Shown: positions 6,901-64,000, numbered from the stretch's first letter. The stretch is 64,000 bases of DNA from Candidatus Magasanikiibacteriota bacterium (GCA_041674805.1 JBAYVA010000002.1:83234-147233); one strand, 5' to 3'. Translations and numbers: made by a program. The notes: a model not told the origin generated them from the sequence alone.

Positions 6901-7697
6901 ATAACTTTTAATTCAAGACTAAAGTTGCCAATATCAGAAAAAATATATGAAAAAAAAGAACTAGTTGATAAAAGTATATTATCAAACAACCAATTATACT
7001 CTACTATTTGGCCATCACTATCACTAGAAGTACTACCATCAAAATCTACAGCTTTTGATTTTTGAAAAATGTTTCCACTTGTAACAATTTTGGCAACAGG
7101 TTTTTGATTTTGAATATCATTATTATCTAAAGACCAATAATTTTTTTGTCCTACCGAATTATTGTCTGGATGTTCTTGCCAATTATCAATATTATTTATT
7201 GGCTGAAATACATCCATTCTTTCCAAAGAATGATTATTTTGGATGGCTTTATAAACAAAATTTTCTATGAAACTATCATCTTTTTTTAAACCTATTTCTT
7301 CTCCACCCTTGTTCAAAGTTGTCCAAGAACTGTCCAAAATTAAAGAAGAAAAATTTGGATATCTCTCAAAAAAATTCAAATCATTTTGAGTAATTACAGC
7401 GTATCCTTTTGGAGCTAAAATAAAAGTTTGAAACAAACTTTTTTCACTAATATTTAAACTATGATTAGTATCTGCTTCCCAAAATTTCCAGCCAGTCAAA
7501 TCCATACTTTCATCACCTTTGTTATAAATTTCTATCCACTGAAAACCACTTTCAGCACAACCAGTAGGACAAATTTCTGTAATCACCACATCATTATCAG
7601 AACCAAAAACAAAATTTTTAAATAAAAAAACACTCAATATAAGTGCTAAAAAAAACAAACTAAATTTTCTTAATTTAATAAAAAAAATTTTAATCAT
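3954..7697 (-). CDS. Giant extracellular protein (1247 aa) with N-terminal signal/TM, about five lamin-tail-domain (LTD) repeats, a PKD domain, tandem C-terminal OB-fold-like domains, and a C-terminal TM anchor with a basic tail
   Basis: LTD-type repeats: NEFVSDPVAGENEWVEIYNNSTSTIDLKDW, VINELVSDPSDGEKEFVEIYN, LNEIYPNPPGSDSDDEFIEIWN, ISEILPNPVGSDTTEFIEIHN. A PKD-like segment: KFDASDTVSPEGKDLKFHWDFADGTDEDG...YTVSLTVSDGS. The C-terminus has an OB-like pair (VTGTVAVEPGIMGTQIFYIVSENAGVQIY and SLILVSGEITEIKSS) followed by FTAILFGLFL and KKLIKKFISK. Confidence 0.7.
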   Translation of the reverse strand: MIKIFFIKLRKFSLFFLALILSVFLFKNFVFGSDNDVVITEICPTGCAESGFQWIEIYNKGDESMDLTGWKFWEADTNHSLNISEKSLFQTFILAPKGYAVITQNDLNFFERYPNFSSLILDSSWTTLNKGGEEIGLKKDDSFIENFVYKAIQNNHSLERMDVFQPINNIDNWQEHPDNNSVGQKNYWSLDNNDIQNQKPVAKIVTSGNIFQKSKAVDFDGSTSSDSDGQIVEYNWLFDNILLSTSSFFSYIFSDIGNFSLELKVIDDKNDFASDIFNFSIVENFESTTTTTNTIPNYEIVINEFVSDPVAGENEWVEIYNNSTSTIDLKDWEVHEGDKSSSSTKKILVLDNILETKSFLRVNILSSKLNNDGDGIFLYDNSGNLIDTVRFGDWIDFFDEDISDNAPAHSDPYSVARIVDGQNTGNNKNDFSITTEPTPGEVNIIKNIPVSSSGGGSSSSSEVTTKNYNARDLVINELVSDPSDGEKEFVEIYNNTSEIIDLNDWSLEDGSETITILTGTILPKGFFVIEEPKGSLNNAGDILLLLDPSKKEIDKVTYGNWDDGNTYDNAAVASDPYSLIRKTDGQDADNDYYDFIITDTITRGQKNVLSLKAEDLEKQEIFSLQTNIVLNEIYPNPPGSDSDDEFIEIWNKGTETIDLKDWQLSDSSKKKYTIKQGVLKANEFIVFKRTMTQIALNNTGGDEVKLFSPNGAIVNSVSYPGSASDSFSYVRQDDATWVWSSKITAGSKNIVEGKSAAPIIALDVDTEVAVNEWVKFDASDTVSPEGKDLKFHWDFADGTDEDGASVEHKFLQQGVYTVSLTVSDGSNESKKDVVLSVKLSQDFVGGYAGTSDISVLYISEILPNPVGSDTTEFIEIHNPTEEDVDISGLKIDDEEGGSKAYTVGANTLIKAKEYKVFGRQDTKLALNNTSDSVRLLYPDGTIIMEVRFDDVIEGASYVRNSEGNWIWNKIISPGEVNFVEEITEVKSVKIVKSKSNSVKAVINTSLEKIRDEDLGDMISVTGTVAVEPGIMGTQIFYIVSENAGVQIYMFSKDFPDLKRGDKIEVMGEITETSGETRIKLKEKNDIKKLGHSELPIGRVLELEDVGEQYEGSLILVSGEITEIKSSYMYVDDGTEEIKVYFKRGAGIKKDIFEEGNLVSITGLLHQTKTEYQLLPRDQNDIIKTGVSEDLVTKKEKAKEQDNADIVEKYLTATAGGFTAILFGLFLKSNGENIFSKIKKLIKKFISK

Positions 7698-8187: not shown

Positions 8188-9591
8188 TTATTTTCTAACG
8201 TAAGAAAGTGGATTAACAAATTTTCCATTTACACGAATTTCAAAGTGAGTGTGAGGTCCAGTAGAACGACCTGTAGATCCCATCAAGGCAATCGTTTGTC
8301 CTTGTGTCACATAGTCACCAACTTCTACAAATAATTTTGAGTTATGCCCATATAAAGATACTACACCATTACCATGATCAATTTTGATATAACAACCATA
8401 TCCACCATTATAACCACATTGTGAAGTAATTACAGTACCAGCTTTGGTTGCATAAATGGCTGTACCAATAGGGCCTGCAACATCCAAGCCAGTGTGTTTC
8501 AACCCATAATATTGGGTAACAATCTTAGCAGCAGTTGGCCACAAATAACCAGAACCAGCAGGAGCTTCTACTGAAGAAGGTAAAGCAACTACATTATTAT
8601 AAGAAGCAGGCCTTGTCGCTACATAAGTTGGTTTTTTAATTTCTTCCACTTTTTTGCCACCAGGAACGATAAGCAGTTCCCCTATCACAATATCAGCACC
8701 ACCCTCTTCCAATTTATTAAATTTTATAATTTCATCAGAATTCGCACCATAAACTTTGGCAATTTTGGAAATAGTATCATTTTTAACTACTTTGTGTGTC
8801 ACACCATCAGTTGGTAAAATAATCAAAGTTTGATTTGGTTTAATAGTAGACCTTGCAGTTAAATTGTTTGCCCATAAAATTGTATTTACACTAATACCAA
8901 AACGACTTGCTATTTCTCCTATTACATCCCCAGACTGTACAACATATTCCAAAATTTCACTTCTATTAGTTTTTACAATTTGTGAACCATTCGAATTTTG
9001 ATTTGCCAACTCTGAACCAGGAATAATTGTTGGTTTAGTTACTGCACTACCACCGACAGTGACACTTACCAAATCTTCTAATTTATTACTTTTATTTAAA
9101 ACTTCTTTGCTATTTTCTACAGAAATACTACCATCTTTCCAATTCAAATTACTTTTATCACTGTTATTTGTGTTTATATTGTTTACAAGTATTTCTTCTT
9201 CATAAAAGTCTTGATCACTAGTGTCGATAATTTTATATAGCAAAGAATTTCTACCAGAAATTTCACCAAATTCTTTGGTATATAATTTAGTATGGGGATA
9301 CATAATAACAAAAAATATTATAAACAAAAAAATCTGAAGAACACCTCTTCTACCAAAAATTTCTATTTTACTTTCTTGTCTAAATAATTTTAATTTATTT
9401 AAATTTTTTTTACTATAAAAAAGGGCTTTAAACAATACAAACCCCAAAGTTCTTTTATAAATATTATTAACAAATAACAAAAATTTCCAAAAAAAAGATA
9501 TCCCGAAAAAAGTAAACCTTTTTAAATATATCAAAGACTTAAGTAAATATAATATAAATTTGTAAAATTTTTGATTCATAGGTATGTCCAA
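8188..9591 (-). CDS. M23-family (LytM-type) peptidoglycan endopeptidase with two LysM domains and an N-terminal TM segment
   Basis: C-terminal HxxxD...HxH M23 signature (GLDVAGPIGTAIYA...GPHTHFEIRVNGKFVNP). Two LysM-like segments (YVVQSGDVIGEIASRFGISVNTILWANNL and HKVVKNDTISKIAKVYGANSDEII). The true start may be downstream of the first ATG. Confidence 0.75.
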   Translation of the reverse strand: MDIPMNQKFYKFILYLLKSLIYLKRFTFFGISFFWKFLLFVNNIYKRTLGFVLFKALFYSKKNLNKLKLFRQESKIEIFGRRGVLQIFLFIIFFVIMYPHTKLYTKEFGEISGRNSLLYKIIDTSDQDFYEEEILVNNINTNNSDKSNLNWKDGSISVENSKEVLNKSNKLEDLVSVTVGGSAVTKPTIIPGSELANQNSNGSQIVKTNRSEILEYVVQSGDVIGEIASRFGISVNTILWANNLTARSTIKPNQTLIILPTDGVTHKVVKNDTISKIAKVYGANSDEIIKFNKLEEGGADIVIGELLIVPGGKKVEEIKKPTYVATRPASYNNVVALPSSVEAPAGSGYLWPTAAKIVTQYYGLKHTGLDVAGPIGTAIYATKAGTVITSQCGYNGGYGCYIKIDHGNGVVSLYGHNSKLFVEVGDYVTQGQTIALMGSTGRSTGPHTHFEIRVNGKFVNPLSYVRK

Positions 9592-14122: not shown

Positions 14123-15250
14123 TTATTTTTTAATAGGCATAACGATATACAAGTAATTGTCTTTTTCTTTTGGTCTAAAAATACAAGGAGCATCAGCACT
14201 ATTTACACCAAATTCAATGTTTTCACCTTCCATGTGTGCTAAACCATCCAACACATAGCTGTGGTTTAATAAAATGGAATTTTCTTCACCAATTACTTCA
14301 GCATCAACTTCAGAAGTATGTTCTCCAGCTTGAGTACTGGAAGAAGAAACTCCTACATTTTTTTTGCTTGGACTAAGCTCAAAAGAAACAGCATTGATAC
14401 CACCTGACGTAAACAAACTCGCTGCTTTGATTTTGTTGACCATAACACTTAGCGGAAAAGCAGCTGTTGTTTTAAAATTGTTTGGAATAATTTGTGTATA
14501 ATCTGGATAACGGCCTTCAATCAAACGACTAGTCATTTCAAAATTTCCATAACGAATAGCTATTTGATTATCACTTACCCAAACACGAACAATATCTTCA
14601 CCGCCATGACTTTTGGCAATTGTCAAAAGACGATTTATTTCATAAGCTACGCGTGCTGGTACAATACAGTGCACATTTTGAATTTCACCTTGTTTAATTT
14701 TTATTTTAGCTTCTGCCAAACGATAAGAATCTGTTGCTGCTAATACTAATCCATCATATTTTTCTGAAAAAAATGAAAAATAAATACCTGAAAATTCTGG
14801 TCTTACTTCGTTTTTGGAAACAGCTATAATAACTTTGCCAATAGCTTCTTTCAAATCATCAACTTGAACAACATAAGAATTTTTTTCTTCCACTTCTGGT
14901 AAAATTGGATAATCTTCATCTGTTGATCCTTTGATTTTAGTGCTAGAATTACCTGAAGTTATGATTAATTCATTGCCTTTTTGGTCTATTTCTACTTGTT
15001 CGCTTGTCAATAACTTAACATAATCTGCCAAAGTTTTTGCTGGAACTGTAAAATTTCCAGTAGTTTCTACTTTGGCTCTAATTTGTGTTTTTACTGCAAT
15101 TTCTAAGTTAGTACTGCTAATTTCAATACCTGAATCATTGGCTTTGATAAGTACGTTACTCAAAATTGGTAAGTTTGTATGTTTACTAGCTAAGGAACTC
15201 ACAAGACTCAAGGAATATTCTAAGTTTTCTTTTGTACATGTGAATTTCAT
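14123..15250 (-). CDS. dnaN: DNA polymerase III beta sliding clamp
   Basis: 375 aa. N-terminus MKFTCTKENL...LPILSNVLIKA is typical of DnaN, and the gene is immediately downstream of dnaA. Confidence 0.85.
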   Translation of the reverse strand: MKFTCTKENLEYSLSLVSSLASKHTNLPILSNVLIKANDSGIEISSTNLEIAVKTQIRAKVETTGNFTVPAKTLADYVKLLTSEQVEIDQKGNELIITSGNSSTKIKGSTDEDYPILPEVEEKNSYVVQVDDLKEAIGKVIIAVSKNEVRPEFSGIYFSFFSEKYDGLVLAATDSYRLAEAKIKIKQGEIQNVHCIVPARVAYEINRLLTIAKSHGGEDIVRVWVSDNQIAIRYGNFEMTSRLIEGRYPDYTQIIPNNFKTTAAFPLSVMVNKIKAASLFTSGGINAVSFELSPSKKNVGVSSSSTQAGEHTSEVDAEVIGEENSILLNHSYVLDGLAHMEGENIEFGVNSADAPCIFRPKEKDNYLYIVMPIKK

Positions 15251-17978: not shown

Positions 17979-18362
17979 TTGTATATGTTAGCCAAAGAAT
18001 TTAGATTAAGAGGTAAAAAAGAATGGGAAGTTTTGTTTGCAGAAGGTAACTTTGCTTCGGCAAATTTTTTGACGGTCAAATTTTGGAAGATAGAAGTAAA
18101 TAAATTTCCTCGTAGAAAGTTTCAAGTATCAGATCTTAAGATAGGCTTTAGTGTTGGTTTAAAAATAAGTAAAAGTGCTGTAAAACGTAATAGTGTTAAA
18201 AGAAAAATGAGTGAAGTTGTGAGATTGTTATTAAAAGACAATAAAATTAAATCAGGTTATTTGATTGGATTCTTGGCTAAAAATAATATTTTAGATGTTG
18301 ATTACTCACAAATAGAAGCAGATATTATTAATTGTCTGAAAAAATCTAAACTATTAATCTAA
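17979..18362 (+). CDS. rnpA: RNase P protein component
   Basis: 127 aa basic protein directly downstream of rpmH, with an RnpA-like fold (KEFRLR...FSVGLKISKSAVKRNSVKR). Confidence 0.75.
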   Translation: MYMLAKEFRLRGKKEWEVLFAEGNFASANFLTVKFWKIEVNKFPRRKFQVSDLKIGFSVGLKISKSAVKRNSVKRKMSEVVRLLLKDNKIKSGYLIGFLAKNNILDVDYSQIEADIINCLKKSKLLI

Positions 18363-34812: not shown

Positions 34813-35006
34813 AAATAAAGTATTATTGAGGTATATTATTTGCGAAGTAAATAGACAACACACAATAGTAAACAGATTTTGTTATATTCTATTTACTCTG
34901 GTCTTTTTACTATTTACAGCAGTTGTTTACTTGCTTTTACTAAAAAAAAAGGTTACAATGGCTAACGCAATTATACCAAAGATACCAATAATAACAGATA
35001 ACATAT

Positions 35007-35335: not shown

Positions 35336-35349
35336 TAGTTCAGTGGATA
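35336..35349 (+). repeat. 14-nt direct duplicate of the tRNA-Arg D-arm (TAGTTCAGTGGATA), 27 nt upstream of tRNA-Arg. Possible tRNA remnant or att-associated duplication.
   Basis: Exact match to positions 35376-35389 inside the tRNA. Confidence 0.5.
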
Positions 35350-35368
35350 CCTGCCCGCCCTTACTTAT

Positions 35369-35440
35369 GCCCCTGTAGTTCAGTGGATAGAACAAGACAC
35401 TCCTAACGTCTAGACACATGTTCGATTCATGTCAGGGGCA
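35369..35440 (+). tRNA. tRNA-Arg (anticodon CCT)
   Basis: Acceptor GCCCCTG/CAGGGGC, D-arm GTTC..GAAC, anticodon loop CTCCTAA, T-arm ACATGTTCGATTCATGT. Confidence 0.75.
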
Positions 35441-35982
35441 CAGGCAATGGCAGACGAGAAACAATACACTGCTAACGTTTAGGTATATATTGTGTTTATA
35501 TAGTTTATAATATGTATATTTGTATACATTTGTGTATACAAATATAAACAATTGTAACTATTTTTTTTAGTAAAACATAATGTTTGCAATAATATTGTAA
35601 ATGAAATTCTTCCACAGATGGCTGTGGATTATTTTTTTAATTTGGATTTCTCCTTTAGTTTTCATTTTTATCTTTCTTATAAAATAGATTAAGCTTTTTA
35701 TGTAAGCAAAGTGAATAAGTTTAAATTTTTTTTATTAGTCTGAATTAGCGATCCAACTGTTGCCTCTTTTCCGATTTCAGTGTAACTTCAGAGTAGCTTA
35801 TTATAAAATATAAAAAAATAGAAATTTGATCTATAAATTCATTAGGACTATCTATAATTTGTATAAAGATGCGAAAAAAATAAAACGAACTATTAGATGA
35901 ATCTTTTAAGAATTTTGAAAGTTTATATATAATATGTATATACAAATTATGGATGTATACAATATACTATACAAACGCAAAC

Positions 35983-36008
35983 AAAAAACGCCAGTAAAAG
36001 GCGTTTTT
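35983..36008. terminator. Terminator hairpin at the 3' end of the integrase gene
   Basis: AAACGCC-AGTAAAA-GGCGTTT with flanking A/T runs. Confidence 0.6.
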
Positions 36009-36043
36009 TGTTATGTTTCACGTGTAACATTATATATTTTGTT

Positions 36044-36889
36044 TCATGTTTCACATGAAACTTGATCCAAATGGCTGAAAATATTGAGTGTTTGTACAGG
36101 CTTACTTGTTTTGTATTTTTTGGTAGTACGAATATTTTTATGGCCAAGTATTTTTTGAAGTTGTTTTTCATCGATTCCCCTTTCAAGCATTTCTTTACTA
36201 AAGCTGTGTCGTAAAGATTGAAAAGTTATTTTTTTAGTTATTTTGGCACGTTTTAGGGCTTCTGTGAAAGCTTTTTCAACAGATCTGATACTTAGTTGTT
36301 TATTTTGTGGGTTTATAAAAACAAAATCATTCATTTTTTTGAAAGCGACAAATCTTTTCAATTCATTTTTTATTGTCTGAGGTAATATAGTTTCTCTATT
36401 TTCTTTAGTTGATTTGTTGTTTAGGGTAATAATGTTGTTTTCAAATTGTAAATTTTTGACTTTTATATCTATAATCTCACTTATTTTTAATCCTGAACCA
36501 TAAGATAATAAAAAAATGAGACAATGTTTTTGATTTTTGGTATTTTCTATTATTTTCTCAAATTGTTTTTTGTTCAAAGTATTTATCTTGTTTGTATTTG
36601 TTTTAAAAAAAATTATAGACACTGTTTGTTTTTTGAAATTTTTGTAATAAAATGACAAAATGTTTAAAATTAAATTTTTTGTTTGATTTGATTTTTTTTG
36701 TTGAGTTTTCAAAAATAGTTTTATTGATGTATTTTCGTCAGATATTTTTTTTTTATTTAAAAAAAATAAATATTTTTCTAAATAAAAAAGGTAGGATTTA
36801 ATAGTTGTTGGCTTATAGTTTTTTTGTAGTAAATCAGTTTTTATTTTTGATAAAATATTTTTTTCTGAAATTTTTTTTTGTTTTTTCAT
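36044..36889 (-). CDS. Tyrosine site-specific recombinase/integrase (XerC/D-like phage-integrase family)
   Basis: C-terminal catalytic region FQSLRHSFSKEMLERGIDEKQLQKILGHKNIRTTKKY, following the R...H-x-x-R...H...Y pattern. It is adjacent to a tRNA gene. Confidence 0.75.
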   Translation of the reverse strand: MKKQKKISEKNILSKIKTDLLQKNYKPTTIKSYLFYLEKYLFFLNKKKISDENTSIKLFLKTQQKKSNQTKNLILNILSFYYKNFKKQTVSIIFFKTNTNKINTLNKKQFEKIIENTKNQKHCLIFLLSYGSGLKISEIIDIKVKNLQFENNIITLNNKSTKENRETILPQTIKNELKRFVAFKKMNDFVFINPQNKQLSIRSVEKAFTEALKRAKITKKITFQSLRHSFSKEMLERGIDEKQLQKILGHKNIRTTKKYKTSKPVQTLNIFSHLDQVSCET

Positions 36890-37034
36890 ATAAATTTATT
36901 ATAACATAAGTTCGTATAATATACAATATATAGTTATTAACAATAACTATATTGCTATTTCTATAAGATATGGTACGAAAAGCTTTTGTGGTGTATAATA
37001 TTAGTACTTATGAAAAATTATATACAAAAGCGTT

Positions 37035-37862
37035 ATGCAAAAACAATTGAAATCTTTTGATGGTACTCAAATAAATTATGATATTGTAAGAGTGAAGAAT
37101 TCAGAAAAGTTTTTAATTTTTTTACACGGCGTCGGTAGTGATCTTACCTCTTGGCACAAAGAAACAGTACCTTTCCATAAAAAAGGCTATTCAACTTTGG
37201 TGTTAGACATGAGGGGGCATGGTAAGTCTGATAGACCAGAGACACCACAAGATTATGATTTGAACAATTTTGCCAAAGACGTTTTTCTTATTATTAAACA
37301 TGAGAATATTGAAAAATTTGTTTTTGTAGGGCATTGTTTTGGGGCAATGGTATCTATGATGTTCCATAAAATGTATCCCAAATTGGCAAAATCTTATATT
37401 TTAGTTGATTCTACTTACAAAGCACCAAGATCACTCAGGCTTATTTTTCATAAAAATTTGTTTTTTGTAAAATTACTTAATTATTTTTTGATTAGAAGTG
37501 TTGATAATAAGAAAATTTTTGGTCACAATAATTTTGATAAATACGTGGGAACAGGGGACTGGAACATACAAAGAATTTTTGCTGATATTACTCATACCAG
37601 TTTCAAATCTTGGATTTTTACTTATCAAAATGTCGCAAAGTTTGATGCTATAGACATAATGAAAAAAATAAAACAAAGAGTATTGATTGTAGAGGGTGGC
37701 AGAGATAGTGTAATAAGTGTTTTGCAGGCCAAAAAAATGCATAGTTTAATCCAAAATTCTGAATTGTCAATTGTACCTGAGGCTAATCATATTATTATTC
37801 TCAATAATCCAAAAGAACTTGAAGTGGAAATTTATAAATTTTTGAAATCATTGAATTTTTAG
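37035..37862 (+). CDS. Alpha/beta-fold hydrolase whose nucleophile elbow reads GHCFG (Cys in place of Ser)
   Basis: IFLHGVGSD...VFVGHCFGAMV...ANH. 275 aa. Confidence 0.6.
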   Translation: MQKQLKSFDGTQINYDIVRVKNSEKFLIFLHGVGSDLTSWHKETVPFHKKGYSTLVLDMRGHGKSDRPETPQDYDLNNFAKDVFLIIKHENIEKFVFVGHCFGAMVSMMFHKMYPKLAKSYILVDSTYKAPRSLRLIFHKNLFFVKLLNYFLIRSVDNKKIFGHNNFDKYVGTGDWNIQRIFADITHTSFKSWIFTYQNVAKFDAIDIMKKIKQRVLIVEGGRDSVISVLQAKKMHSLIQNSELSIVPEANHIIILNNPKELEVEIYKFLKSLNF

Positions 37863-37888
37863 ATTTATAATATTATATAAAATAGTTT

Positions 37889-38455
37889 ATGAACAAAAAA
37901 ATAAAATCCTTACTTATTGGTGGTAATTTGTGGTATTTAGGTGAGGGCATGTTTGGTCCTTTGTTAGCTGTTTTTACTGAAAAAATTGGTGGTGATGTTC
38001 TTGATATAAGTTATGCTTGGTCGATTTATCTTTTAGTTATGGGTTTGCTAACAATGTTTGTTGGTAAGTTTTCTGATAAATCTGATAAAGCAAAAATAAT
38101 GGTATTTGGTTATGCTTTGAATGCTTTTTTTACCTTTGCTTATTTGTTTGTAGATTCATCTTTGAAACTTTTCGTTGTGCAGGCTGGTTTGGGTATATCA
38201 GCTTCTTTGGCTGCTCCAACTTGGTATTCATTGTATGCTAAGTATGAAGATAAAAATAAAGATGGTATGGAATGGGGTTTGGCAAGTGGTAGTTCGAATA
38301 TTATTACAGGTATTGCAATTTTAATTGGAGGTATTATTTTGAAATTTTATTCTTTTAATATTTTATTTTGTGTAATGGGTACTTTGCAGGTTGTGGCTAC
38401 TATTTATCAATTCCAAATTTTGAAAAAAAAGAAATTATTATTTTTTAAAAGATAG
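37889..38455 (+). CDS. Six-TM membrane protein resembling half of an MFS transporter, possibly a gene fragment
   Basis: 188 aa with about 6 TM helices and no partner half nearby. Confidence 0.35.
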   Translation: MNKKIKSLLIGGNLWYLGEGMFGPLLAVFTEKIGGDVLDISYAWSIYLLVMGLLTMFVGKFSDKSDKAKIMVFGYALNAFFTFAYLFVDSSLKLFVVQAGLGISASLAAPTWYSLYAKYEDKNKDGMEWGLASGSSNIITGIAILIGGIILKFYSFNILFCVMGTLQVVATIYQFQILKKKKLLFFKR

Positions 38456-38458
38456 TTT

Positions 38459-38815
38459 ATGTTTAAGAAATTGACTCCTGAAGAAGAACAAATAATTTTG
38501 AACAAAGGCACTGAGGCTCCTTTTTCGGGTGAATATTATTTGAATAATGATAAAGGTGTTTATACTTGTAAACGTTGTGGTACTAAACTTTATAAATCAG
38601 AGGACAAATTTGATTCTGGTTGTGGTTGGCCGAGTTTTGATGATGAAATTGAAGGTAGTATAAAAAGATTGGTGGATAGTGATGGTTTGCGTACAGAAAT
38701 TCAATGTGCTAATTGCGGGGCACATCTTGGTCATGTTTTTGCTGGTGAAGGTATGACTCCAAAAAATATTAGGCATTGTGTAAATTCTTTGTCTTTGTTA
38801 TTTGAAAAGGACTAG
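38459..38815 (+). CDS. msrB: Peptide-methionine (R)-S-oxide reductase
   Basis: CKRCGTKLY...CGWPSF...RTEIQCANCGAHLGHVF, the SelR/MsrB zinc and catalytic Cys motifs. Confidence 0.85.
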   Translation: MFKKLTPEEEQIILNKGTEAPFSGEYYLNNDKGVYTCKRCGTKLYKSEDKFDSGCGWPSFDDEIEGSIKRLVDSDGLRTEIQCANCGAHLGHVFAGEGMTPKNIRHCVNSLSLLFEKD

Positions 38816-38978
38816 TAATCTAGATGGTCATTTTATTATTTCAATTTTATCTCTTCGTTATTGTAAAATAAGATAGATATAAGGAGATAAAATGGAGATG
38901 ATTAAATTATCTCTATCTTATATCTGTTTTATCTCAATTTTTTGCTCGAGTCTTTAGTAAATAAAACACAAATTATAT

Positions 38979-39476
38979 ATGAACATTCTAAAAAAAATGA
39001 ACAAGGCATATTTCGCTGGTGGTTGTTTTTGGGGAGTGCAATATTATTTTGATAAGCTCCCGGGCGTTGTCAAAACAACAGTTGGTTATATGGGTGGAGA
39101 AAAACAAGAACCAACTTACCAAGAAGTTTGTGCTCATACGACTGGTCATTTGGAAGCTTTGGAAGTTGTATTTGATTCTGACAAAATAGATTTTGAAAAA
39201 GTATGTAAATATTTTTTTGAAATTCATGATCCAACTCAAAAAAATGGACAAGGACCTGATATTGGAGAACAATATTTGTCAGCTGTATTTTGTGTAGATG
39301 ATGAACAAAGAAATATTACAAAAAAATTGATTCTTATTTTGAAAGAAAAGGGGCTTGATATTTTTACTAAAATTTTACCAGCTGGAGAATTTTGGGAAGC
39401 AGAAAATTATCACCAAAAGTATTATGAAAAAAATGGACATGAACCTTATTGTCATTTTTATACTAAGCGTTTTTAG
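38979..39476 (+). CDS. msrA: Peptide-methionine (S)-S-oxide reductase
   Basis: The AYFAGGCFWGVQ active-site motif near the N-terminus. Confidence 0.85.
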   Translation: MNILKKMNKAYFAGGCFWGVQYYFDKLPGVVKTTVGYMGGEKQEPTYQEVCAHTTGHLEALEVVFDSDKIDFEKVCKYFFEIHDPTQKNGQGPDIGEQYLSAVFCVDDEQRNITKKLILILKEKGLDIFTKILPAGEFWEAENYHQKYYEKNGHEPYCHFYTKRF

Positions 39477-39539
39477 AGGATTGATTCAAATATTCGGATA
39501 ATTCAAATAACAGATATAATAAATTATTAATTTTAACTT

Positions 39540-40022
39540 ATGAAAATAGATTTCAAAAAACTAACAATATCTATTGTTGGTACACAACTTGCAGGTGTCT
39601 TAGGTTCGGTTTTTAATTTTGTTTCTATACCTACTTGGTATACAACTTTGAATAAACCAAGTTTCAATCCACCAAATTGGGTATTTGGACCTGTTTGGAC
39701 AATTTTGTTTTTGATGATGGGAGTTGCTGTTTATTTGGTCTGGACCAAAAAGACAATTTTTCATCAAAAAAAGAAAAAAGAAGCTTTGCAAATTTATTTA
39801 TTGCAACTTTTGTTAAATGTTTTGTGGAGTGCTTTGTTTTTTGGAATTTTGAATCCAGGTTTGGCTTTTGCTGAAATAATTGTTTTGTGGTTAGCTATTG
39901 TAATAACTATTTTCAAATTTAATAAATTTTCTACATTGGCTGCATGGTTGTTGGTACCTTATTTATTGTGGGTGAGTTTTGCTAGTATTCTGAATTTTTC
40001 GATTTGGATTTTGAATTTTTGA
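39540..40022 (+). CDS. tspO: TspO/MBR-family tryptophan-rich sensory protein
   Basis: Five-TM protein with WYTTLNKPSFNPPNWVFGPVWTILFLMMGVA. Confidence 0.8.
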   Translation: MKIDFKKLTISIVGTQLAGVLGSVFNFVSIPTWYTTLNKPSFNPPNWVFGPVWTILFLMMGVAVYLVWTKKTIFHQKKKKEALQIYLLQLLLNVLWSALFFGILNPGLAFAEIIVLWLAIVITIFKFNKFSTLAAWLLVPYLLWVSFASILNFSIWILNF

Positions 40023-40079
40023 TTTTTGACAAAATCATATTTTGTTGATAATATGTTTTTACTTTATTTGAAGTAAAAA

Positions 40080-40153
40080 GGGCCTTTAGCTCAGCTGGCT
40101 AGAGCGCTTCCATGGCATGGAAGAGGTCATGGGTTCAAGTCCCATAAGGTCCA
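40080..40153 (+). tRNA. tRNA-Ala (anticodon GGC)
   Basis: Acceptor GGGCCTT with the G3:U70 pair, D-arm GCTCAGCTGGCTAGAGC, anticodon stem CTTCC/GGAAG around loop ATGGCAT, T-arm GGGTTCAAGTCCC. Confidence 0.75.
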
Positions 40154-40170
40154 CAATTAAATAAAGCAAA

Positions 40171-40244
40171 GGGCCGTTTCCCGATTCATCGGGAGGCTAG
40201 AGTGCCCGGACGGGAGGTCGCTGGTTCGAATCCAGTAAGGTCCA
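40171..40244 (+). other. Aberrant tRNA-like element. It shares the acceptor 5' end (GGGCCGT) and the T-arm/3' end (GGTTCGAATCCAGTAAGGTCCA) with the adjacent tRNA-Ala, but the core does not fold into a canonical D/anticodon cloverleaf. It may be a pseudo-tRNA or an att remnant.
   Basis: Hand folding fails to produce a 7-nt anticodon loop. The 3' 24 nt are nearly identical to those of tRNA-Ala(GGC). Confidence 0.45.
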
Positions 40245-40318
40245 CAAAAAAACTTTCTATTTTATAGAGAGTTTTTTGTTTTTTGATTACATGTTATACT
40301 ATAAAAATAATATAATAA

Positions 40319-42443: not shown

Positions 42444-43007
42444 ATGTCAAATAAAATAATTTTAGGTTTTGTTGGTGATTTGGCTTCTGGTAAGGGAACC
42501 TTGGCTAAATATTTACAAGAAAAGTATAATTGTAATACTTACAGATTTTCTAATATGCTTCGTGATGTTTTAGATAGAATCTATGTAGAAAAAAATCGTG
42601 AAAATATGCAACTCGTTTCAAAAGTATTGCGCGAAAATTTTGGGCAAGATGTGATGAGCAATGTCATTGCCAAAGATGTGGTTGGTGACAAAAATGAACT
42701 TGTTGTGGTAGATGGTATTAGACGTCCAACTGACATCACTTATTTACAAAATTTAGAAGGTTTTCATCTAATATATATTACAGCTGACGTCAAAACTCGT
42801 TGGCAAAGAATGGTGAATCGTCAAGAAAATCCTGATGAAAAAGACAAAACGTTTGAACAATTTTTACTTGATGAACAAGCAGAAGCAGATATGCTGATAA
42901 AAGAGCTTGGTAGTAAAGCTGAAAAAACAATAAATAATGATGGTACAATCGAAGAACTTTATAACAAAATAGAAAATATTTTAGAAAGTTATGGACATAA
43001 AAATTAA
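42444..43007 (+). CDS. P-loop nucleotide kinase (dNMP-kinase-like)
   Basis: Walker A GDLASGKGT and a DGIRRP NMP-kinase-like motif. It sits between the dCMP deaminase and dUTPase genes and overlaps dut by 17 nt. Confidence 0.5.
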   Translation: MSNKIILGFVGDLASGKGTLAKYLQEKYNCNTYRFSNMLRDVLDRIYVEKNRENMQLVSKVLRENFGQDVMSNVIAKDVVGDKNELVVVDGIRRPTDITYLQNLEGFHLIYITADVKTRWQRMVNRQENPDEKDKTFEQFLLDEQAEADMLIKELGSKAEKTINNDGTIEELYNKIENILESYGHKN

Positions 43008-43479: not shown

Positions 43480-44352
43480 ATGAAAGCATACTTGGATATT
43501 GTTAAAAAAATATTAGATAGTGGAATAGAAAAAACAGATAGAACAGGTACTGGTACTATTTCTATACCTGGCATCATGTTTGAACATGAAATGAGCAAAG
43601 GTTTTCCATTACTTACCACAAAAAAAATGCCTTTCAAAATTTTGGCTGTGGAGTTGGAATTTTTTATCAAAGGTCTTACTGACAAACAATGGTTGATTGA
43701 TAGAAACTGTCATATTTGGGATGAATGGGCAAATCCTGAAAAAGCTCCTTATGGACATGACGAAGCTAGCAAAAAAAGAATGGCAGAAGAAAGAGATTTG
43801 GGGCCAGTTTATGGTTTCCAATGGCGTCATTTTGGTGCACCTTATTATAATTATGATAGTGATTATACAGAACAAGGTTTTGATCAGCTGAAATATGTAG
43901 TTGATAATTTGAAAAATAAACCAGACGATAGAAGAATGGTTGTAAGCGCCTGGAATCCTGCAATGGCTTCTAAAATGGCTCTCCCTCCATGTCACTATGC
44001 TTTTCAAGTTACGGTTACTGATGGTAAATTAAATCTTATGTGGAACCAAAGATCTGTGGACACTATGCTAGGGCTTCCTTTTAATATCGCTAGTTATGCT
44101 TTGTTATTACATCTTTTGGCAAAAGAATCCAATTTGGGTGAGGGTAAGCTCGTTGGTTTCCTTGGTGACACTCATATTTACAAAAATCATATAGAAGGTG
44201 CAGAAGAACAACTTAGTCGTGATTCAAATAAATATCAATTACCAAAATTGGAAACAGAAAATTTCACTTCTATTTTTGACTGGAAAGCTGAAGATACCAA
44301 AGTCGTTGGTTACGAAAGTTTTGATAGAATAAAATTTGATATTGCTGTTTAA
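43480..44352 (+). CDS. thyA: Thymidylate synthase (ThyA type)
   Basis: TDRTGTGT and LPPCH (the active-site Cys) plus WNQRS-type motifs. 290 aa. Confidence 0.9.
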   Translation: MKAYLDIVKKILDSGIEKTDRTGTGTISIPGIMFEHEMSKGFPLLTTKKMPFKILAVELEFFIKGLTDKQWLIDRNCHIWDEWANPEKAPYGHDEASKKRMAEERDLGPVYGFQWRHFGAPYYNYDSDYTEQGFDQLKYVVDNLKNKPDDRRMVVSAWNPAMASKMALPPCHYAFQVTVTDGKLNLMWNQRSVDTMLGLPFNIASYALLLHLLAKESNLGEGKLVGFLGDTHIYKNHIEGAEEQLSRDSNKYQLPKLETENFTSIFDWKAEDTKVVGYESFDRIKFDIAV

Positions 44353-63756: not shown

Positions 63757-63952
63757 TAAAGTAAAAAATAATAATATAAATAAAACGTTTTATTAAATAA
63801 TAGAACGTTTTTAATTACAAATTTCTAATGTCAAAACTTTTTGTAATTAATAATTTGAAATTGATTTGATATTTGGATTTTTTAATTTGAAGTTTGTTTC
63901 TTAGTAAGAAAATTTATATATTAAAAAATAGACTTAGTAGTCTATTTTTTGT

Positions 63953-64000
63953 ACCGCGGGCGGGACTTGAACCCGCACGACATTGCTGCCAAGGGATTTT
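63953..64000 (-). tRNA. Partial tRNA (3' portion; T-arm and acceptor 3' strand), truncated by the window end. Identity undetermined.
   Basis: Minus strand reads ...GCGGGTTCAAGTCCCGCCCGCGGTACA, a T-stem/loop with an acceptor arm. Confidence 0.5.

Follow-up and report, generated by a model that had tools for sequence, protein, structure and literature searches.

Does a tyrosine recombinase gene beside a tRNA gene, followed by a short run of cargo genes and a second tRNA gene, mark a mobile genomic island? We address this question for one segment of a Candidatus Magasanikbacteria chromosome (Candidate Phyla Radiation, CPR), analyzed within a window of 64,000 nt from whose start all coordinates are counted. 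The segment carries, in order, tRNA-Arg(CCT), a recombinase, an alpha/beta hydrolase, a half-size MFS protein, MsrB, MsrA, TspO, and tRNA-Ala(GGC), with a tRNA-like element, here called X, just beyond (Table 1). An initial annotation had listed these genes, all of which are present according to ARAGORN, Rfam, and Pfam, and had read them as an islet integrated at a tRNA gene. We lean towards a different answer: that the block between the tRNA genes is an ancient insertion, now fixed and vertically inherited.

The block is syntenic among close relatives. Loci of related genomes (L-numbers) were brought in through homologues of the flanking transaldolase and of TspO. A single gene order is common to nine separate lineages (the window, L003, L004, L005/L022, L010, L011, L012/L013, L014, and L020): RmuC, CBU_0592-like, tRNA-Arg, recombinase, hydrolase, (half-size MFS), MsrB, (MsrA), TspO, and tRNA-Ala. 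Synonymous sites are saturated among these lineages. The whole segment, recombinase included, is shared without flanking repeats, an outcome that had been named beforehand as one that would speak against an islet. Deviant composition had also been proposed as a check. The five cargo genes are within one standard deviation of the window's genes (46 open reading frames, ORFs) for both GC content and GC content at third codon positions (GC3). Only the recombinase gene is odd (GC 0.225, z -2.7, 19% Lys, normal GC3), and its low GC content is due to its amino-acid content. Direct repeats that could serve as attachment (att) sites, sought between 35.3-35.5 kb and 40.1-40.3 kb with a repeat finder and by blastn-short of the entire window with X and the two tRNAs as queries, did not emerge beyond generic T-arm similarity.

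The block is absent from one more distant lineage. In L030 and L031, which are 80%, 58%, and 57% identical to the window in RmuC, PolA, and HolA, respectively, tRNA-Arg(CCT) and tRNA-Ala(GGC) are only ~750 nt apart. No recombinase, hydrolase, Msr, or TspO gene lies between the two tRNA genes, and permissive tblastn detected no remnant of the recombinase there. This spacing indicates that the two tRNA genes of the window are separated by an ancient indel of ~4 kb (36.04-40.03 kb). Its left edge is a palindrome (palindrome 2) and not a tRNA. After tRNA-Arg, L030 retains a TATACAAA motif, a terminator hairpin, and two palindromes (TTGTTTAACGTGAAACAA and TTGTTTCACGAGAAACA), and it has a small GIY-YIG ORF just before tRNA-Ala. 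Thus, one part of the islet interpretation holds, in that the block is accessory on a deep timescale, while a recent, tRNA-integrated islet with att ends does not. A further locus, L032 (RmuC 71%), also has adjoining tRNA-Arg and tRNA-Ala genes, but the latter has the anticodon CGC, which makes L032 only loosely comparable. The two genes of L032 are separated by a strongly GC-rich, apparently structured spacer of 190 nt (8580-8771, minus strand) in an otherwise AT-rich genome.

Part of the block has been exchanged between lineages. Between the window and L003, the CBU_0592, recombinase, and hydrolase genes have a synonymous divergence of 1.4-1.9, and the flanks one of only 0.2-0.55. When L003 is compared with L012/L013, it is the flanks that are more diverged than these three genes. 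These opposite contrasts show that the CBU_0592-recombinase-hydrolase sub-block has been swapped between lineages as alleles. These genomes commonly show replacement of alleles or genes. Outside the block, an AAA_17 kinase-like gene (42444-43007) and ThyA (43480-44352) are 47% and 34% identical between the window and L003, with neighbors at 90-97%.

X resembles tRNA-Ala at its ends and differs from it in its core. It starts 16 bases after tRNA-Ala, and the two have in common the acceptor ends, GGCTAGAG, AGGTC, and the T-arm. In the D-arm, CCCGATTCATCGGG stands in for the 5' part, and CCCGGACGGG takes the place of the anticodon arm; both are GC-rich hairpins, the latter forming a 10-nt mini-hairpin. 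The element had been described as tRNA-like with a non-canonical core, and this description is borne out: ARAGORN makes no call and the Rfam tRNA model (RF00005) has no match even at E<=10. X lies between the promoter-like site of tRNA-Ala and a hairpin with a T-run, and in relatives without X this hairpin directly follows tRNA-Ala.

The distribution of X does not follow that of the block. Full-length X is found in the window, L003, and L011, a shortened form (X') in L021/L023/L024, and a partial copy in L030, where a perfect palindrome, TCCCGATGTACATCGGGA, takes the place of the anticodon arm. X is absent from L004, L006, L010, L012, L013, and L014. X can be present where the block is not and is lacking in many block-bearing genomes, so it is not the block's att site. 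The same distribution, together with similar fragments beside unrelated tRNA genes, removes the wider proposal that tRNA-derived pieces are the att sites of the block.

X bears signs of recombination between tRNA-Ala alleles. Pair mismatches were read directly from the sequences. Each full-length copy has a single mismatched acceptor pair (G6/A67 in the window, A6/A67 in L011, and U1/C72 in L003), X' has an intact acceptor stem, but its T-stem is broken and its core deleted, and in the L030 copy the 5' acceptor strand is missing. In all three full-length copies, the allele type of the backbone is the opposite of that of the neighboring intact tRNA-Ala: in the window, the intact gene is of type A (ATGGGTTCAAGTCCCAT) and X of type B (GCTGGTTCGAATCCAGT), and the reverse is seen in L003 and L011. 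The intact tRNA-Ala of L023 is a hybrid. Backbone swapping and this hybrid suggest recombination between tRNA-Ala alleles. We read X as a decayed tRNA-Ala duplicate, a recombination scar at an insertion hot spot, for which the fitting annotation is pseudogene and not tRNA. Two other identities were tried and rejected. As a phage attP, X gave three matches in a pattern scan of viral contigs, all of them chance matches in GC-rich DNA without tRNA context. As a mini-tmRNA (transfer-messenger RNA), it fails because other copies, whose loops vary, do not retain the likeness of GAUUCAUCGGGA to the D-loop analogue of tmRNA, and ARAGORN and Rfam tmRNA searches are negative. A tmRNA joins an Ala-type acceptor and T-arm to a tag-encoding domain, and X is only 74 nt long.

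The junction downstream of tRNA-Ala is occupied by different DNA in different relatives: restriction-modification islands (L005 and L021-L023), a Y1 transposase (L019), or other ORFs (L011 and L014). The defense gene sets lie just downstream of tRNA-Ala(GGC) (L005 3340-8025, L021 1817-7081, L022 3195-7874, and L023 2715-4569) and differ in content, with a helix-turn-helix protein, Dam-type methylases, MutH-like or AlwI-type nucleases, and an AAA ATPase among their products. No integrase of their own was found in these four sets. In L019 (545-1160), TspO is followed not by tRNA-Ala, which is missing, but by a GC-rich hairpin together with an IS200-type Y1 transposase (Pfam 1.1e-33).

Other tRNA genes in these genomes have comparable neighbors. 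GIY-YIG ORFs of 88 amino acids lie right beside tRNA genes in L003 (10925-11260, minus strand) and L030 (4010-4276, minus strand); the former sits between tRNA-Gly(GCC) and a partial tRNA-Gly copy with the anticodon arm CCCGTCCGGG. Further hairpin-bearing pseudo-tRNA pieces occur in L003 (11360-11640, minus strand), L006 (2100-2160 and 630-665), and L011 (5680-5715). Among them are two tRNA-Met 5' fragments with TCCCGATCAATCGGGA for a D-arm, a second tRNA-Gly-like copy, and 5' halves of X upstream of tRNA-Ala. The tRNA-Gly/Met/Gly cluster downstream of the transaldolase is inverted in L003 (11265-11741), L010 (11268-11341), and L011 (8092-8165) relative to the window, L004, L005, L006, and L014. 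Upstream of the transaldolase, L010 (9840-9900), L011 (6000-6090), L012 (4520-4580), and L013 (9830-9900) have GC-rich, hairpin-bearing sequence (e.g., CAAACAGCTTCCCCCTCAAACTCCCC; TCCCGATTCATCAGGA in L010) that is absent from the window and possibly represents a leader RNA or a small repeat element.

The recombinase is related to the archaeal Xer proteins. Its best NCBIfam match is XerA (NF040815) at 147.4 bits, below the curated cut-off of 220. Integron integrase (IntI, TIGR02249) is next at 122 bits, against a cut-off of 265, and XerC/XerD follow. The IntI-specific insertion is absent, since the match to PRK15417 does not pick up again until profile position 256 and chain residues 186-245 of IntI4 (2A3V) are unmatched. 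No integron cassette array was seen in the window. The best matches in the Protein Data Bank (PDB) are Pyrococcus abyssi XerA (4A8E), IntI4, and Thermoplasma XerA. Judged by these profile and structure matches, the recombinase is Xer/XerA-like and not a phage or island integrase, the role first proposed for it as a XerC/D-like enzyme.

The recombinase evolves rapidly and has an altered active site. Aligned with 4A8E, the window protein has Lys for catalytic Arg-I (GSGLK vs GAGLR) and Gln for His-II (FQSLRH vs PHQLRH), and it retains Arg-II, His-III, and Tyr. Arg-I is Lys in three of the nine aligned recombinases (the window, L010, and L011), and His-II (HxxR) is Gln in all nine. Recombinase orthologues are 45-74% identical to one another, against 80-97% identity to the window for the neighboring RmuC of relatives. 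The ORF, which ends 602 nt from tRNA-Arg, is intact. Its ratio of nonsynonymous to synonymous substitution rates (dN/dS) of 0.16-0.25 indicates purifying selection and a working protein. Homologous recombinases in other CPR/Patescibacteria genomes are located among housekeeping genes (UvrC, TrmD/FtsK, and glycosyltransferases). In two distant CPR loci, L025 (5900-5950) and L026 (880-925), a common motif, AACTAGTGT[AT]TATGCGAA[GA]TGTTTT, lies just upstream of the homologous gene; the L026 copy is part of a ~19-2-19 palindrome. The motif may be the cognate site of this recombinase family.

Conserved DNA sites lie between tRNA-Arg and the recombinase gene. The AT-rich tract with palindromes noted earlier in this interval is real. 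Site A, an inverted repeat, is kept after tRNA-Arg in all block-bearing relatives. Its spacer reads GAGTAGTA at six loci from five sequence-distinct lineages (L003, L010, L012, L013, L014, and L020), the exact reverse complement of GAGTAGTA in L004, and CATTTGTG in the window. Where the window has its AT-rich spacer, L010, L014, and L020 have a promoter and an ORF of 227-256 amino acids (ORF-X) between site A and a second motif, TTGTATACAA. ORF-X has no match in Pfam or PHROG. The window's spacer is decayed DNA at the position of ORF-X. The terminator-type hairpin beyond site B is conserved in position in all relatives and L030. The two palindromes have a 7-2-7 form with a CACGTG center, and the C-terminus of the recombinase reads through palindrome 2. 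In 222 kb of related DNA, site A, the TTGTATACAA motif, and the paired TGTTTCACGTGAAACA palindromes are essentially confined to the tRNA-Arg-recombinase interval. The few further matches are to relaxed patterns at unrelated positions, and the palindrome pair is found nowhere else. We infer that the likeliest candidate DNA partners of the recombinase are the conserved palindromes at the 3' end of its gene and the TTTGTATA-N8-TATACAAA site by tRNA-Arg.

Three other functions were considered for DNA in this region and rejected. The replication-origin region is within the window (dnaN 14123-15250, minus strand; dnaA 15765-17150, minus strand; rnpA 17979-18362, plus strand), the cumulative GC-skew minimum is at ~14-16 kb, and the terminus is outside the window. 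The palindromes beside the recombinase gene are not a terminus dif, because the locus is ~19 kb from the origin. The AT-rich spacer is not oriC: its DnaA-box-like TTCCACAG/CTGTGGATTAT lie in a terminator-like hairpin, relatives have an ORF there, and dnaA, dnaN, and rnpA are at 14-18 kb. A 25-nt inverted repeat (34935-34959 and 35551-35575), tried as recombination sites, instead resembles two similar divergent promoters.

Fragments of tRNA-Arg are less telling than X. The partial D-arm duplicate upstream of tRNA-Arg is, as first described, an exact 14-nt copy, with an E-value of 0.022 over the whole window. It is specific to the window; relatives have no such copy there. A second exact 14-nt match to the D-arm region (TTCAGTGGATAGAA), within a 1247-aa ORF at 7530-7543 (minus strand), is probably due to chance. 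As this match is equally good, support for the upstream copy is statistically modest and comes mainly from its position. The weaker copy of the anticodon arm downstream of tRNA-Arg may also be a chance match. In L003 (5588-5690), GC-rich hairpins between tRNA-Arg and site A are followed by GATTCATGTCAGGGGCAC. This is the 3' end of the other tRNA-Arg allele (window/L014 type) and hence a displaced fragment.

Under the reading we lean towards, a ~4-kb block would have inserted long ago between tRNA-Arg(CCT) and tRNA-Ala(GGC) and then become fixed. It would since have been reshuffled by homologous exchange among related lineages, with no sign of an ability to excise. X would be a decayed, co-transcribed duplicate left by recombination between tRNA-Ala alleles, not an att site, at a position where relatives hold restriction-modification islands, an IS200-type transposase, or GIY-YIG genes. 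Several observations weigh against parts of this account. Only one outgroup lineage, L030/L031, is strictly comparable. It keeps sequence that resembles each flank of the recombinase gene (palindrome 2 and a motif of the promoter region), so that a clean deletion of a native gene would fit as well, and the indel may have either polarity. The palindromes persist in L030/L031 without a recombinase gene, a caveat to their candidacy as its partners. The same GC-rich hairpins substitute for arms in Ala-, Gly-, and Met-derived fragments, which the account leaves unexplained. Finally, X has the same T-arm sequence in the window and L030, although divergence elsewhere is saturated, and this could reflect selection on X instead of decay.

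A native region that was never an islet is the possible, though less probable, alternative. A resident Xer-type enzyme and ordinary chromosomal genes would then have been lost from L030/L031 by deletion between the tRNA genes. The housekeeping neighborhoods of homologous recombinases in other CPR genomes, XerA as the best family match, the native composition, and an order kept in nine lineages are all consistent with this, as are palindrome 2 and the recombinase-promoter-like motif of L030, which look as if the ORF had been excised. However, the XerA score is well under the family cut-off (147 vs 220 bits), Arg-I is replaced in three and His-II in all nine of the aligned sequences, the low recombinase identity beside well-conserved neighbors is unusual for a housekeeping Xer, and a gene ~19 kb from dnaA cannot have a terminus dif in its adjacent palindromes. 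A discrete ~4.7-kb islet with its own integrase and tRNA-derived att repeats, perhaps still mobile, is very unlikely. Its appeal comes from the integrase gene adjoining a tRNA gene, the tRNA-derived fragments at both ends, and the absence of the block in L030/L031, but no repeat is common to both ends, X and the block occur independently, the block is fixed in nine lineages with saturated synonymous sites, the window recombinase lacks the first catalytic Arg, the cargo is native in composition, and the left indel edge is palindrome 2 and not a tRNA. As regards recent mobility, this model is already contradicted.

X could also be a functional RNA that is tRNA-like but has no anticodon. It would be transcribed together with tRNA-Ala, matured by RNase P, and aminoacylated by alanyl-tRNA synthetase via G3:U70, for example to supply alanine to a non-ribosomal acceptor. 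It is tRNA-sized, lies between the tRNA-Ala promoter and a terminator, keeps G3:U70, A73, and a well-paired T-arm, and shows compensatory differences between copies; the T-arm shared with distant L030 is the main point in favor. We nevertheless think this improbable, given an acceptor mismatch in each full-length copy (at pair 1:72 in L003), the broken T-stem and deleted core of the L021-type copy, the missing 5' acceptor strand in L030, and the absence of X from most relatives. Both T-arm types also exist as intact tRNA-Ala alleles, and gene conversion can explain the conservation. More speculatively, the recombinase, the two CACGTG palindromes, and the TTTGTATA-N8-TATACAAA site might form a lineage-specific recombination module that drives turnover (the ORF-X cassette, cargo, and defense islands) at both tRNA genes, with the arm-replacing TCCCGA-N4-6-TCGGGA hairpins as footprints of this module or of a Y1/GIY-YIG element. 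We consider this doubtful; if true, it would represent a type of tRNA-gene-editing scar not yet described.

Table 1. Features of the segment between the tRNA-Arg(CCT) and tRNA-Ala(GGC) genes and at its two ends.
Feature	Position	Strand	Basis or remark
Exact 14-nt copy of tRNA-Arg D-arm, TAGTTCAGTGGATA	35336..35349	+	20 nt upstream of tRNA-Arg
tRNA-Arg(CCT)	35369..35441	+	ARAGORN; Rfam 65.1 bits
Weak copy of tRNA-Arg anticodon arm (20/23)	35460..35482	+	18 nt downstream of tRNA-Arg; E=1.4 for 19-nt core
Site A, inverted repeat TTTGTATA-N8-TATACAAA	35519..35542	none	
AT-rich non-coding spacer	35543..35951	none	
Site B, degenerate second copy of site A motif	35952..35975	none	TTGTATACAA in relatives
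Terminator-type hairpin ACGCC-AGTAAAA-GGCGT	35983..36009		Between A-run and T-run; read from sequence
Palindrome 1, TGTTTCACGTGTAACA	36014..36029		Consensus TGTTTCACGTGAAACA
Palindrome 2, TGTTTCACATGAAACT	36047..36062		Abuts or overlaps 3' end of recombinase ORF
XerA-like tyrosine recombinase, 281 aa	36044..36889	-	Pfam Phage_integrase 1.4e-32 and SAM_4
Alpha/beta hydrolase	37035..37862	+	Pfam
Half-size (six-transmembrane-type) MFS protein, 188 aa	37889..38455	+	Pfam; MFS_1 N-half
MsrB	38459..38815	+	Pfam
MsrA	38979..39476	+	Pfam
TspO/MBR	39540..40022	+	Pfam
Promoter-like site TTGACA-17-TAATAT with TG	40026..40054	+	Upstream of tRNA-Ala
tRNA-Ala(GGC), allele type A	40080..40154	+	ARAGORN, Rfam
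X, tRNA-Ala-derived pseudo-tRNA, 74 nt	40171..40244	+	Type-B backbone
Hairpin and T-run CTTTCTAT-TTT-ATAGAGAG-TTTTTT	40253..40277	+	

Two of the cargo genes merit comment. The MFS ORF had been taken for a truncated gene, but it has orthologues of the same length in L010, L011, and L014 (~72% identity, dN/dS 0.09-0.16). Same-length orthologues and a low dN/dS indicate a conserved ORF of ~180 amino acids under purifying selection and not a truncated fragment. Outside Magasanikbacteria, the two next-best TspO homologues whose context was looked up (63-65% identity; L027-L029) adjoin archaeal-type genes (TrmB and TFIIE-alpha), and several other matches at 55-60% have source names of DPANN-type archaea (Woesearchaeota and Altiarchaeota) or other CPR. 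There are hints here of cross-domain transfer of tspO. Distant TspO homologues were discarded as synteny evidence, as their contexts are archaeal, unrelated, and uninformative. At the far end of the window (63950-64000, minus strand), a T-arm and 3' acceptor (GCGGGTTCAAGTCCCGC CCGCGGTA) without an ARAGORN call are probably part of a tRNA gene cut off by the window end.

The case is one of an old, fixed accessory block and a tRNA pseudogene at a hot spot, and as such is ordinary to mildly interesting. It illustrates that a pattern of tRNA gene, integrase, and cargo can be an old and fixed part of a CPR chromosome and not an active island. It also shows that presence and absence need to be assessed over a range of evolutionary distances: the islet was refuted by comparison with close relatives, and a distant lineage brought it back as an ancient event. 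The tRNA genes of these tiny genomes are hot spots of both allele exchange and insertion. A fast-evolving family of Xer-like recombinases in Patescibacteria with conserved adjacent palindromes offers a lead.

How does the locus compare with known systems? Genomic islands that are associated with tRNA genes and carry tyrosine integrases are catalogued in Islander (PMC4383910). As in these, a recombinase lies by a tRNA gene, an accessory block between tRNA genes is absent from a relative, and tRNA fragments are nearby. Unlike these, the block lacks a pair of regenerated target and displaced fragment at its ends, its recombinase is Xer-like without an arm-binding domain, and the block is fixed, native in composition, and syntenic over nine lineages, with a palindrome as the indel edge. 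Integrating elements leave non-canonical fragments of tRNA genes (van der Gulik et al. 2023, PMC9897764), and X and the small tRNA-Arg pieces resemble these as incomplete or aberrant copies next to intact genes at insertion sites. X differs from such fragments in keeping both acceptor strands. In addition, two of its arms have given way to palindromic, GC-rich hairpins also seen in Gly- and Met-derived fragments, which is not a described feature of att remnants.

Single-recombinase Xer systems provide the other comparison. The best match is the single archaeal Xer, XerA of P. abyssi (4A8E; Cortez et al. 2010, PMC2958812), which shares with the window protein a length of ~280 amino acids and a SAM-like N-domain followed by a catalytic domain; like XerA, the recombinase is chromosomal and a single gene in the loci seen. 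In contrast to XerA, the window recombinase scores below the family cut-off, has Lys for Arg-I and Gln for His-II, evolves much faster than its neighbors, belongs to a bacterial (CPR) host, and has no dif site that can be assigned to it. In XerS/difSL and XerH/difH (PMC2731167), a single Xer is linked to its site, and the conserved palindromic sites immediately by our recombinase gene recall this arrangement. The likeness has limits: the locus is near the origin and not the terminus, the palindromes are 7-2-7 where dif is 11-6-11, and they persist in L030, where the gene itself is absent.

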